Source: a virus
Virus record (IMG/VR): IMGVR_UViG_3300027977_000008
Location: 32,001 to 96,000 of that record
DNA: 64,000 nucleotides
Strand: one strand, 5' to 3'
A model generated the notes under the pieces. It did not search any database. It was given only the letters and a program-made list of their open reading frames with translations, and had not been told where the DNA came from. Position numbers and translations under genes: made by a program. How positions within the stretch are numbered: position 1 is the first letter of the stretch; each line of letters opens with the position of its first letter. Positions 31,900 to 53,830 of the stretch are shown piece after piece.

Positions 31900-32203
31900 T
31901 TTGTATGGATGTTCATTTGTTCTTTTGGACGATGAACAATACCTTATAGAATTATTAAAAAATGCTGCAATAGCAAGTGGTGCTACTGTACTTCAAACTA
32001 TTTCAAAAAAGTTTGATCCACAAGGTGTCACTGTCATTTCTTTACTTGCGGAAAGTCATATTAGCATTCACACTTGGCCAGAAGAAGGTAGAGCGGCAGT
32101 AGATGTTTATACCTGTGGAAATTCTAATCCAAAAATAAGTTGCGATATTATTATTCATCAATTATACTCACAATCACACACACTATCTTATATTGAAAGA
32201 TGA
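31877..32203 (+). CDS. speD: S-adenosylmethionine decarboxylase proenzyme
   Basis: F.PQGVT, LAE-SHISIHTWPE (pyruvoyl site), DVYTCG. Confidence 0.92.
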   Translation: MGKHYLLNLYGCSFVLLDDEQYLIELLKNAAIASGATVLQTISKKFDPQGVTVISLLAESHISIHTWPEEGRAAVDVYTCGNSNPKISCDIIIHQLYSQSHTLSYIER

Positions 32204-50831: not shown

Positions 50832-50865
50832 ATAGATAAATACCTCCATATGGAGGTATTTTATT

Positions 50866-51204
50866 ATGAACCCAAGTTCGGCTAAAGCTAAAGGCAGAAG
50901 ATTGCAACAATGGGTTCGTGATCAATTGATTGAGCACCTTGAAGTACATCCTGAAGATATTGAAAGTCGTAGTATGGGTGCTGGTGGAGAAGATCTTATC
51001 ATGGCTCGTGCTGCCAGATCTAAGTTTCCTCATAGTATAGAATGTAAAAATGTCGAGAAGCTAAATATCTGGGATGCTTACTCTCAAGCATGTGCAAATT
51101 GTGGCGAGTATGAGCCCGTTTTGTTTATAAAAAAGAATAACAAAAACCCATTAGTGGTTGTGGATGCAGAGTATTACATAAACTTATTTGGAGATAAAAA
51201 ATGA
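50866..51204 (+). CDS. PD-(D/E)xK nuclease, Holliday junction resolvase-like
   Basis: AKAKGR, GEDL, SIECKN, AY.QA. Confidence 0.75.
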   Translation: MNPSSAKAKGRRLQQWVRDQLIEHLEVHPEDIESRSMGAGGEDLIMARAARSKFPHSIECKNVEKLNIWDAYSQACANCGEYEPVLFIKKNNKNPLVVVDAEYYINLFGDKK

Positions 51205-51896
51205 AAATTGATTTACATAACTTCTTTAAGCATTACGATGAAAAAAATCCTAAGCATGTTGCTGGTGTAGAGCAACTGGAAAAGGATCTAACAGATTCTC
51301 TATTGATTGATGACACCTCAAATTGGGTTAGGATTTATAGAACTAAACCAAGCAAACCAGTAAATCCATCTATTCTTGATGTGCCTTACTATCCACAGAC
51401 AGATAACTATACAAATGCAGAACGCACTTGTAATTCCTCTGCCTGTGCGATGTGTCTTGAGTATTTCAAACCCGGAACTCTTAAAGGAGCACAAGGAGAT
51501 GATGCCTATATTAGAAAAGTATTTGCCATCGGTGATACAACTGACCATTCTGTGCAGACAAAAGTTCTCGCAAGTTATGGAATTCAGTCAAGTTTTAGTT
51601 ATAATCTTTCTTTTGCTGATCTTGATAAAAGTCTTAGTGCTGGCAAACCTGTTGTTATTGGCATCCTACATCGTGGTTCTTTGTCTTATCCTACGGGCGG
51701 CCACATGGTTGTAGTGATTGGTAAGACACAGAGTGGTGACTATGTTGTAAATGATCCTTATGGGTCACTCAATGATGGTTATACGGGTGATGTTTATAAT
51801 GGCAAAGGTGCTATCTATAAGAAATCAGATCTATCTGCTCGCTGGTGTCCTAATGGTAATGACGGATGGGGCAGAATCTTTGATGTAAAAAAGTAG
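51201..51896 (+). CDS. Peptidase C39-like (papain-like) endolysin component
   Basis: VPYYPQ.DN, TCNSSACAM (catalytic Cys), GGHM (His), VNDPYG (Asp); ends on A AAA AAG TAG. Confidence 0.85.
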   Translation: MKIDLHNFFKHYDEKNPKHVAGVEQLEKDLTDSLLIDDTSNWVRIYRTKPSKPVNPSILDVPYYPQTDNYTNAERTCNSSACAMCLEYFKPGTLKGAQGDDAYIRKVFAIGDTTDHSVQTKVLASYGIQSSFSYNLSFADLDKSLSAGKPVVIGILHRGSLSYPTGGHMVVVIGKTQSGDYVVNDPYGSLNDGYTGDVYNGKGAIYKKSDLSARWCPNGNDGWGRIFDVKK

Positions 51897-51948
51897 AAAA
51901 CTCTACTCCTTCTGGAAGCAAGTATGATGTACCTGCAAAAGGAGTAGA
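51887..51948 (+). promoter_or_regulatory. Candidate programmed -1 ribosomal frameshift signal
   Basis: A AAA AAG heptamer 51887-51893; in-frame TAG follows; 10-bp stem TCTACTCCTT(51902-11)/AAGGAGTAGA(51939-48). Confidence 0.8.
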
Positions 51949-52387
51949 TCTTATTAAAGAGTTTGAAGGTTGTCATTTGCAGGCATATCCAGATCCTCTG
52001 TCTGGACATCTTCCGATTACTATTGGTTGGGGAAGCACTAGAGATTTGAATGGAAAACCATTTAAACTGGGTCAAAAGATATCACAAAAAGTTGCTGATG
52101 ATCTTTTGATAAATCAAATTAAAAATGAGTTTCTTCCTACACTTTCAAAAATACCTTATTGGAGTGAGATGACAGATGGAAAACGTGGTGCTCTTCTTAG
52201 TTTTGCTTACAATCTTGGAGCTGGTTTTTATGGATCTGGAAATTTTAGTTCAATCACTGCGAGATTAAAAAATAAAGAATGGGATAAAGTTCCTGATGCT
52301 CTTTATCTTTATCGTAATCCTGGTTCAAATGCAGAAGCAGGTCTGGCACGTAGAAGAAAGGCAGAGGGAAAACTCTGGAATTCTTAA
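51893..52387 (+). CDS. GH24 (T4/P22-type) lysozyme domain, reached via the -1 frame
   Basis: LIKEFEGC.L.AYPD..TIGWGST, SFAYNLG, GLARRR.AE; no ATG/GTG upstream of the catalytic Glu in this frame. Confidence 0.85.
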   Translation, partial: VENSTPSGSKYDVPAKGVDLIKEFEGCHLQAYPDPLSGHLPITIGWGSTRDLNGKPFKLGQKISQKVADDLLINQIKNEFLPTLSKIPYWSEMTDGKRGALLSFAYNLGAGFYGSGNFSSITARLKNKEWDKVPDALYLYRNPGSNAEAGLARRRKAEGKLWNS

Positions 52388-52796
52388 AGGAGCACAAGGA
52401 GATGATGCCTATATTAGAAAAGTATTTGCCATCGGTGATACAACTGACCATTCGGTTCAAACTAATGTGTTGAATTCATATGGGGTTAAATCACACTTTA
52501 GTTACAATCTTTCTTTTGCTGATCTTGATCGTGAAATAGCAAATCAAAGACCAGTAGTGATTGGCATTCTACATCGTGGTTCTTTATCTAATCCTACGGG
52601 CGGCCACATGGTTGTAGTGATTGGTAAGACACAGAGTGGTGACTATGTTGTAAATGATCCTTATGGGTCACTCAATGATGGTTATACGGGTGATGTTTAT
52701 AATGGCAAAGGTGCTGTATATAAGAAGTCTGACTTAACTTATAGATGGTTAGAGAATGGTAAGGATAAGACTGGTTGGGGAAGAATTTTTAAATAA
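52382..52796 (+). pseudogene. 5'-truncated second copy of the C39 peptidase (lacks the catalytic Cys)
   Basis: Identical blocks 51479-51550=52382-52453 and 51688-51812=52591-52715, interleaved with divergent but in-frame segments. Confidence 0.75.
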
Positions 52797-53046: not shown

Positions 53047-53170
53047 GAAACATCGCCTTACAGCGGTTACATCATGAGATTTTGATGTGAAAATTAGAGC
53101 CCAGGAGATTGCCCTTTGAAAAAAGGGAAGTGTGCTTTCTCTATTGGGATGTAGAATTCTATTAAACTTA

Positions 53171-53830
53171 ATGCTACTATCAACAATTGCTACCCTTTCA
53201 GTCTTAACTGCGTTTCAGTCACCACTCTTAATACCAGTGAGTGCTCCACCAGTTCCTGAGAAAGAAAGTTTAGAACTCACAGTTCAAGACTTCTCAAATC
53301 AGAAAGACACCAAATCTGAAAAACTAAACATTACAGAAACGAAGGTCGAAAATAAAGAAAAGATTTGGAAATGTAAAGGGTGTAATCAAACAGAAACTTA
53401 TGCTTTGAGTTACTTACAAAAACAAGGAATCAAAGATAAGAATGCTCTAGCAACAATCATGGGCAATATCAAACAGGAATCAGATTTTGTTCCTAATATC
53501 TGTGAGGGTGGGTCTAGAGTTTCCTACCAAGGATGTGGAAGCGGTGGTTACGGATTAATTCAGTGGACCGATTCTGCAAGATATAATGGTTTAGGAAGAC
53601 ATGCTGCCCGTATGGGTGCCAGTGCTTCCACACTTGACACTCAACTCAACTATATGTTGTATGAGGGTGACTGGAAAATGATTGAACCAAGAATGAAAAC
53701 TCCTGGTAAATCTATTGACCAGTACATGTATTATGCTAGTAAGTGGATTCGTTGGGGACATCATGGAGCAAGAACTGACTTTGCATATAACTATGCAAAG
53801 AAAATGGTTCTTACTGAAGTAGATGCCTAA
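53171..53830 (+). CDS. Phage tail-lysozyme-like cell wall hydrolase with signal peptide
   Basis: IMGNIKQES.F.P, GYGLIQWT, QL.Y; ATG 53171 preferred. Confidence 0.8.
   Translation: MLLSTIATLSVLTAFQSPLLIPVSAPPVPEKESLELTVQDFSNQKDTKSEKLNITETKVENKEKIWKCKGCNQTETYALSYLQKQGIKDKNALATIMGNIKQESDFVPNICEGGSRVSYQGCGSGGYGLIQWTDSARYNGLGRHAARMGASASTLDTQLNYMLYEGDWKMIEPRMKTPGKSIDQYMYYASKWIRWGHHGARTDFAYNYAKKMVLTEVDA

Follow-up and report, generated by a model that had tools for sequence, protein, structure and literature searches.

How a lysozyme can be translated when its reading frame lies directly behind a peptidase gene, in the -1 frame relative to it and without a start codon, is the question raised by the locus described here. 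The locus was found in a 64,000-nucleotide stretch (positions 32,001 to 96,000) of the IMG/VR virus record IMGVR_UViG_3300027977_000008. This stretch, referred to as the window, lies within a 171,943-base viral contig of lake-water origin that belongs to a T4-like cyanomyovirus, and its closest isolate is Synechococcus phage S-PM2, with ~74% nucleotide identity across the peptidase-lysozyme locus. A reading made from the sequence alone had proposed that a programmed -1 ribosomal frameshift joins the two frames, and comparison with relatives strongly supported it through the conservation of the site, the covariation of a hairpin downstream of it, and its association with start-less lysozymes. 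A frameshift of the dnaX/IS3 type that makes a peptidase-lysozyme fusion is accordingly the preferred explanation, with a probability of roughly 0.85. The features of the locus are listed in Table 1.

Table 1. Features of the peptidase-lysozyme locus and the region behind it, in positions of the window.
Feature	Position	Strand	Description
Peptidase open reading frame (0 frame), 231 residues, predicted short product	51201..51896	+	small N-terminal helical module (~residues 1-50) and papain-like C39-like domain
Slippery heptamer A_AAA_AAG	51887..51893	+	read from the sequence; X_XXY_YYZ register, the slippery element of a -1 cassette
0-frame stop TAG, adjoining the heptamer	51894..51896	+	read from the sequence
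-1 frame open reading frame without start codon	51884..52387	+	linker (KKVENSTPSGSKYDVPAKGV) and GH24 lysozyme; with the peptidase, predicted long product of 395 residues
3' hairpin, putative stimulator	51902..51948	+	perfect 10-bp stem, TCTACTCCTT (51902-11) with AAGGAGTAGA (51939-48), and an inner stem
Partial second copy of the C-terminal half of the peptidase (residues 92 to the end), 0 frame	52377..52796	+	84-93% identity; partial match to Pfam PF13529
Junction microhomology GGAATTCTTAA, 11 nucleotides	52377..52387	+	last codons of the lysozyme (W N S stop) overlap with G I L K of the peptidase

The putative shift site and its conservation

The peptidase open reading frame (ORF) ends in GAT GTA AAA AAG TAG. 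The -1 frame is closed upstream by a TGA at 51881-51883 and is then open until a TAA at 52385-52387, and the first ATG, GTG or TTG that it contains is a TTG at 51977, already past the glutamate of the EFEG motif of the lysozyme. The end of the peptidase gene, the position of the heptamer, the adjoining stop, the upstream closure of the -1 frame and its lack of a start had all been described in the sequence-only reading, and all were recovered at the same positions. The string AAAAAAG was observed 47 times in the window versus 45 expected; the heptamer alone is at chance level in an A-rich genome, and its weight comes from its context and its conservation. The tract GGATGGGG, which had been described as similar to a Shine-Dalgarno (SD) sequence and as part of the signal, is present at 51864-51871, but a role as an upstream stimulator was rejected, as it consists of the codons of an invariant GWG motif that are equally present in non-frameshifting relatives. 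It contains no match to GGAGG, and the upstream SD of a dnaX-type cassette is not supported at this site. An upstream SD is optional for this class of -1 cassettes, and cso2 is an example without one (PMC5009743).

Both predicted products have recognizable domains. Residues 59-187 of the peptidase ORF matched the Pfam family PF13529, Peptidase_C39_2 (2.4e-15, 57.8 bits, cut-off 24), the ORF was assigned to PHROG 3617/10051, and the columns of C77 and H168 were invariant in an alignment of natural peptidase-lysozyme fusions (alignment A5), as expected of a member of Peptidase_C39_2. The original label of C39 peptidase held in that the domain is papain-like and matches this family, and was otherwise corrected to C39-like, given that the match is to the C39-like Pfam family alone rather than to MEROPS C39 proper and that no ATP-binding cassette (ABC) transporter context was present among the ORFs of the window. 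Peptidoglycan is the presumed substrate, judging from the fusion partner. The -1 ORF matched PF00959, Phage_lysozyme (GH24), at 3.8e-21 (76.1 bits, cut-off 22.3), and the EFEG, YPD and TIGWG motifs, with the catalytic Glu, Asp and Thr of GH24 enzymes, were all found in the window.

The arrangement of the domains was further examined in L008, a natural fusion with 87-89% identity to the two ORFs of the window. An AlphaFold2 model of this protein (mean predicted local distance difference test score 85) consisted of three parts: an N-terminal helical module (helices 5-8, 17-29 and 41-47), an alpha/beta peptidase domain, and a lysozyme domain. In Foldseek searches the C-terminal domain resembled the GH24 endolysins 9kbq and 6et6 and the P22 lysozyme 2anv, with template modelling (TM) scores of 0.80-0.87, and the middle domain resembled the C39-like peptidase 3erv, with a TM score of 0.58. 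The sole long low-confidence segment of the model was at residues 233-241, right after the shift site, which is thus predicted to map to a flexible or disordered linker between the domains.

In the isolate S-PM2 the peptidase gene ends in GAT GCA AAA AAG TAA, and the lysozyme is in the -1 frame without a start. This locus is annotated as p156 followed by a 72-residue 'putative lysin', p157, and its lysozyme ends in KLWMS before the stop, the same end residue as in the window. Relatives were collected as 80 IMG/VR loci by lysozyme homology, more than 118 loci by the pattern at the peptidase end, and 80 loci with a natural fusion protein as the query. Alignment of these homologues, which had been proposed as a check, showed the heptamer, the stop, the start-less -1 lysozyme and the hairpin conserved together in 95 distinct junctions, S-PM2 among them, with stems that covary in three clades. 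In each of these junctions a 0-frame stop follows the heptamer and an open -1 ORF leads into the lysozyme; the stop is next to the heptamer in 80 of the 95 and comes one codon later in the other 15.

The association between the heptamer and the lack of a start was evident in the set of loci selected by lysozyme homology, which was blind to the heptamer. A_AAA_AAG was present in 20 of 20 distinct peptidases abutting a start-less lysozyme, which end in RIFD[V/A]KK, and in none of 30 peptidases with a separately initiated lysozyme, which end in GWGRIFD without the Lys-Lys; this is a raw count without phylogenetic correction. Homologues with their own start had been named beforehand as a finding that would speak against a frameshift. 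Such homologues were found in this comparison, and they lack the heptamer. In the set selected with the fusion protein, an in-register heptamer was present in 37 of 39 junctions with the lysozyme in the -1 frame, and both exceptions had an ATG or GTG of their own. In one of the two, L280, a relative that bears a start, the heptamer has decayed.

All 95 relatives had a -1 ORF that is intact over ~160 codons; 94-95 of them kept the Glu, Asp and Thr motifs of the lysozyme, and 61% of the nucleotide differences fell at codon position 3. This indicates that the ORF is under purifying selection, and it has the properties expected of the downstream frame in a -1 cassette, namely a conserved coding frame without its own start.

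A broken frame can also result from an error in sequencing or assembly, or from the decay of a pseudogene, and the sequence of the window is a metagenome assembly with a homopolymer at the break. Logan contigs of three lake-water metagenome runs (X1, X2 and X3) were therefore compared with the window. The unique flanks of the window strain were recovered with 0 mismatches at depths of ~110, 90 and 13 in the three runs, respectively. A contig covering 51804-51905 with 1 mismatch read six A residues (A6) directly in X1 and in X2; in X3, A6 was only implied by depth outside a contig with seven (A7), with no matching contig among those listed. The A7 contig, with the extra A at window position 51886, co-occurred in all three runs and made up a quarter to two-fifths of the summed local depth. 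Because the A7 contigs, which are of the in-frame type of L008, differ at 8 of 125 other positions, they represent another strain and not a product of slippage. Independent contigs thus back A6 for the window strain, and the possibility of a homopolymer indel, raised in the earlier reading, resolved into an A7 allele of a diverged strain. The same break was found in S-PM2, in three database records (LN828717 is a separate record of 186,736 bp), in the three S-CAM7 isolates described below, and in ~95 distinct contigs. Since independent contigs read A6 and since the -1 ORF is intact throughout the 95 relatives, with its motifs kept and its changes biased to the third position, sequencing error and pseudogenisation can be excluded for all practical purposes.

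The hairpin, the alternative architectures and the proposed mechanism

The stem of the window hairpin begins 8 nucleotides (nt) past the heptamer, and inside it is a second stem, GCA.GTA/TAC.TGC; the 10-bp stem, the spacer and the inner stem were all as first described. The minimum free energy (MFE) of the hairpin was -17.3 kcal/mol, with a z-score of -2.9 relative to 200 shuffles. For the family as a whole the segment from the heptamer to the codons of LIKEFEG was folded, and the mean MFE over the 95 junctions was -14.8 kcal/mol, compared to -6.3 for dinucleotide shuffles and -7.5 for synonymous recoding in the lysozyme frame. The core stems mostly started 2-8 nt after the heptamer, and the MFE helix sometimes reached back to the stop codon.

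The sequences of the stems were wholly different from clade to clade (TCTACTCC/GGAGTAGA; GCCAACTAA/TTAGTTGGC; TCAACACCACA/TGTGGTGTTGA; GTTCTATTC/GAATAGAAC; GGCACCA/TGGTGCC; CCCCG/CGGGG). Covariation was evaluated in three clades that were aligned without reference to structure. In these, 93.6%, 93.1% and 98.0% of the cells were paired, versus 0.5-53% when the partner was slid by 1-3 columns. Compensatory changes on both sides were found at 6, 5 and 3 pairs, respectively, and the observed covariation score was reached by 0 of 500, 0 of 500 and 5 of 500 shuffles. The retention of pairing, the covariation and the controls therefore indicate that the hairpin is maintained as RNA and is not a by-product of the encoded peptide. 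It provides what a -1 cassette is expected to have on its 3' side, a covarying structure ~5-9 nt downstream.

Other architectures of the locus were found among the relatives. Three S-CAM7 isolates (L206, L208 and L209; ~1457-1505 of L206) have G UUU UUU U, that is U_UUU_UUU in register, in place of A_AAA_AAG, with a stop two codons past the slippery run and a hairpin (GUAGAACC/GGUUCUAC) 5 nt downstream. Their lysozyme, too, lacks a start and lies in the -1 frame, and annotations show the lysin as a fragment of 72-90 residues.

Natural in-frame fusions were also found, as hundreds of proteins of 388-410 residues that belong to PHROG 3617, 'unknown function'. Four of these, L008-L011, have one extra A compared to the window type and encode exactly the junction predicted for the frameshift product, DVKKVENSTP. 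The peptidase-lysozyme fusion is thus a real and widespread protein. In ACG-2014f (more than 40 genome records; L207, 860-930), L110 and L120, the in-frame fusion keeps A_AAA_AAG and a hairpin 5 nt downstream, and a stop in the -1 frame (GTC TGA) comes right after the site. The A7 fusions (L008-L011 and L227) also keep the heptamer and the hairpin, with the -1 stop 12-13 codons later. It is possible that a frameshift in fusions of the ACG-2014f type yields the short form, in a mirror image of the window. In-frame fusions without the heptamer (L210-213 and L218-222) had no significant structure, with z-scores from +0.6 to -2.2, compared to -3.4 to -4.8 for those that bear it. Across these architectures the heptamer and the hairpin travel together and are kept only where two products can result. 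In-frame fusions among the homologues had been named as another finding that would count against a frameshift; they do exist, but either they keep the whole cassette together with a -1 stop, or both heptamer and hairpin are lost.

Genomes of the DSL-LC03 type have a separate lysozyme gene, and the first ~50 residues of its product are homologous to residues 2-50 of the peptidase (46-58% identity, E 1e-10 to 1e-13). In a sister lineage, the S-SRM01 type, the stop of the peptidase just past the heptamer is overlapped by an ATG or GTG (ATGA/GTGA), and S-CREM1 encodes an in-frame fusion in the reversed order, lysozyme followed by peptidase. Two further observations were made on these loci. Separate lysozymes (L004, L005 and ~50 IMG/VR loci, e.g. 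L024 2297-2953) bear their own copy of the N-terminal helical module of the peptidase (~50 residues), which suggests that both enzymes depend on this module. In L205 (S-CRM01; 1297-2633) a break at AAAGAAAAAGATGG interrupts the lysozyme frame within the domain, and the downstream frame runs into a domain with an HG...HGCIR motif that by eye is similar to L,D-transpeptidase/YkuD. The break in L205 would reflect a sequencing error in a homopolymer, or else a further site of recoding.

The S-SRM01-type overlap right after the heptamer also favors a different explanation, in which the lysozyme is made alone by termination-reinitiation or from a non-canonical start and the heptamer merely codes for a Lys-Lys tail. 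Some in-frame ATG or GTG precedes the catalytic Glu in 29 of the 95 junctions, and picocyanobacteria rely little on SD sequences. This explanation was nevertheless judged very unlikely, as neither ATG nor GTG occurs in 66 of the 95 junctions and the first start-like codon of the window, the TTG, would omit the catalytic Glu. The Lys-Lys tail is missing from every peptidase that has no start-less lysozyme next to it and is therefore not needed by the peptidase, and the heptamer has been lost in L280, where a GTG of its own is present. A covarying hairpin over the would-be start region also fits a stimulator of frameshifting better.

Another way in which the fusion might arise by ordinary translation is slippage of RNA polymerase on the A6 run, which would add an A to some transcripts. 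A6 and A7 alleles do coexist in the same lakes, and the dnaX gene of Thermus works by transcriptional slippage (PMC5009743). At the locus of the window, this appears highly improbable, since the hairpin would be untranscribed while the polymerase is on the A run and would have no role, yet it is conserved and is lost together with the heptamer. The A7 contigs, as noted above, belong to another strain. In addition, a run of six A residues is short for efficient polymerase slippage.

Under the preferred explanation, a ribosomal frameshift of the dnaX/IS3 type, ribosomes on the peptidase ORF would reach A_AAA_AAG with the stop next and the hairpin 8 nt on. A fraction of them would slip back by one base, both Lys tRNAs re-pairing on AAA AAA (tandem slippage), and would go on with GTA GAA through the flexible linker into the GH24 lysozyme. 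The hairpin would stimulate the slippage, and the adjacent stop perhaps would as well. The output of the locus would be the 231-residue peptidase and a 395-residue peptidase-linker-lysozyme, with the N-terminal helical module and the peptidase domain common to both. The slipping itself, its efficiency, and the action of the two products in cell-wall breakdown at lysis are presumed from this comparison, and we infer in the same way the set ratio of the products proposed in the sequence-only reading and a role as an endolysin rather than a virion-borne enzyme.

Several points weigh against this explanation. The arms of the hairpin sit in coding sequence, a constraint that the synonymous-recoding control removes in part. 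In the 29 junctions with an in-frame GTG or ATG between the shift site and the catalytic Glu, independent initiation may contribute in the clades concerned. The relatives are phylogenetically non-independent, so that the counts given above overstate the number of events. Contigs from an RNA run had zero depth over 51869-51932, leaving the shift site uncovered. Finally, the shiftiness of A_AAA_AAG is highest when both codons are read by a single tRNA-Lys (PMC5009743), and none of the six tRNA genes within the 64-kb window is a tRNA-Lys.

If frameshifting does occur, the distribution of the architectures raises the further idea that both isoforms are needed and that their ratio is the selected trait. 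The family would then flip, by single-nucleotide changes and with the heptamer and hairpin kept, between making the long form by the shift (S-PM2, S-CAM7 and the window contig) and making the short form by the shift (ACG-2014f, L110/L120 and the A7 strains of the same lakes). This idea is offered tentatively, as somewhat more likely to fail than to hold. Lineages that drop the recoding would instead place a second copy of the N-terminal helical module on a separate lysozyme, a hint that this module is the part to be shared, e.g. for co-assembly or targeting of the two enzymes.

The partial second peptidase copy and neighboring genes

The second copy of the C-terminal half of the peptidase (Table 1) is located behind the lysozyme and is offset from the first by exactly 903 nt, or 301 codons (51474-51862 versus 52377-52765). 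It is without the half that contains the catalytic Cys and without a start, and it ends in GWGRIFK before the stop, with no heptamer. The two copies form a mosaic of stretches that are 97-100% identical (one of 120 nt at 100%) and patches that are 37-59% identical, and the codon differences between them were 19 synonymous to 20 non-synonymous. Among the fetched loci the nearest relative of the second copy was the first; elsewhere identity was at most 82%. No second copy was found in the related loci screened for it, the first 80 by tblastn and an enlarged set by blastn, in which every match to the second copy was the relative's own peptidase gene. Degenerate patterns for the junction between the lysozyme end and the second copy matched nothing in IMG/VR or in Joint Genome Institute (JGI) metagenome contigs, and no listed Logan contig bridges 52377.

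The second copy is probably the scar of a single unequal crossover in which two diverged co-infecting phages recombined at the 11-nt microhomology, one with the frameshift module and the other with a plain peptidase. Because the direct repeats allow homologous recombination, a 903-nt deletion that leaves an intact peptidase without the lysozyme is possible. There is no sign that the second copy belongs to the recoding device.

Several related strains coexist in the source lakes, and the copies have exact stretches of up to 120 nt in common, which could mislead short-read assemblers into a chimera that threads two co-occurring strain alleles; only 52377-52796 would be affected. The lack of the junction in other IMG/VR or JGI metagenome contigs, and of a bridging contig among the Logan contigs listed, is in line with such an artefact. 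A chimera is nonetheless unlikely, if by no means negligible, because a microhomology of 11 nt would be too short for a false de Bruijn join, so that the junction k-mers should exist in the reads, and because the second copy (52497-52598) and its downstream flank were found at the depth of the strain's flanks, ~110-123 in X1.

Three other candidates in this region were considered and set aside. A contig from the RNA run that skips 903 nt (51478 to 52382) resembled a deletion derivative; it is only ~90% identical to the second copy and was assigned to a relative that has a plain peptidase. A +1 shift (UCU UAA A) by which translation would pass from the end of the lysozyme to the second copy has neither slippery logic nor conservation. 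An ATG-started ORF of 166 residues at 52296-52796, overprinted on the 3' end of the lysozyme, has a very hydrophobic N-terminus (MLFIFIVILV) and enters the second copy; it is probably fortuitous. It was not retained as a third product, as it is without the half that contains the catalytic Cys, and a search elsewhere for its junction between lysozyme end and second copy, the only part sought, gave no match.

Upstream of the peptidase ORF are nrdB and then a small gene for a PDDEXK/RusA-like nuclease. A perfect palindrome of 12+12 nt, AAATACCTCCAT/ATGGAGGTATTT, is located at 50838-50861, just 5' of the start of the nuclease ORF (50866). A second putative cell-wall hydrolase is encoded 750 nt downstream of the lysozyme, in an ORF of 232 residues (53132-53830) that has a hydrophobic N-terminus and matched Phage_lysozyme2 (PF18013, 4.4e-18).

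Comparison with known systems

The mechanism proposed here is textbook and the enzymes are ordinary GH24 and C39-like proteins; the apparent novelty lies in the gene context and in how broadly the arrangement is conserved. A full-text search of the literature found no frameshift described in a cyanophage lysin. The only pointers found to frameshifting in lysis genes were the L gene of MS2 and the PRFect paper, which counts 'lysins' with the genes in which a frameshift is known and cites Shearman et al. (1994) on a lactococcal lysin, a possible precedent. The findings specific to the window are the coexistence of A6 and A7 strains, the co-loss test of heptamer and hairpin, the 0 of 30 versus 20 of 20 association, and the partial peptidase duplicate.

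If the frameshift is real, it would account for the annotation of the 'putative lysin' as a truncated fragment in S-CAM7 and in S-PM2, a model cyanophage that can be cultured with Synechococcus WH7803, and it would define the main cell-wall hydrolase locus for a large group of T4-like cyanophages from marine and fresh waters. It would also add to phage recoding a widely conserved example that is enzymatic, being neither structural nor replicative. The locus is a natural experiment, with four alternative architectures that include a reversal of topology like that of dnaX, and gene callers mis-annotate such loci.

Two-domain endolysins that combine a cysteine peptidase with a muramidase are known, and some endolysin genes give a full-length protein and a shorter isoform by internal initiation. 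The locus in the window is similar to these in having a papain-like peptidase and a glycosidase in one lysin and in the prediction of two isoforms per gene. It is different in that those isoforms arise from in-frame internal starts and in that those enzymes come mostly from phages of Gram-positive hosts and have cell-wall-binding domains. The -1 frameshift in phage tail-assembly chaperones (lambda G/GT type; Xu et al. 2004, as cited in PMC5506516) involves other genes, other heptamers and structural products.

The closest proteins are the single-ORF fusions of cyanomyoviruses (ACG-2014f gp211; PHROG 3617; P0002-P0120), which are annotated as hypothetical, lysozyme or GH24. They have the same three modules in the same order, are 57-76% identical to the query L008, and have a junction, ...AKVE..., that is collinear with the transframe ...KKVE.... 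Unlike in the window, their long form needs no recoding, and some keep the heptamer, the hairpin and the -1 stop, whereas others have lost both heptamer and hairpin.

Among known recoding systems, the OrfA/OrfAB arrangement of the IS3 family, e.g. IS911 (PMC5009743), also has A_AAA_AAG near the end of the upstream ORF and a 3' structure, and its fusion also gains a catalytic domain. The structure in IS911 is a three-way junction, compared to a plain and sometimes bulged hairpin here, and the function is transposition instead of lysis. The dnaX gene of E. coli, which encodes tau and gamma (PMC5009743), has the same heptamer, a simple 3' stem-loop a few nucleotides on, and two products with a common N-terminal part, the longer of which has extra domains. 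The differences are that the genes here encode phage cell-wall hydrolases, that in the window the shift would make the long product and the stop adjoins the site, and that no upstream SD is supported. For dnaX, which of the products depends on the frameshift varies between lineages (PMC5009743), and this reversal of topology is matched here by the S-PM2 type versus the ACG-2014f type.

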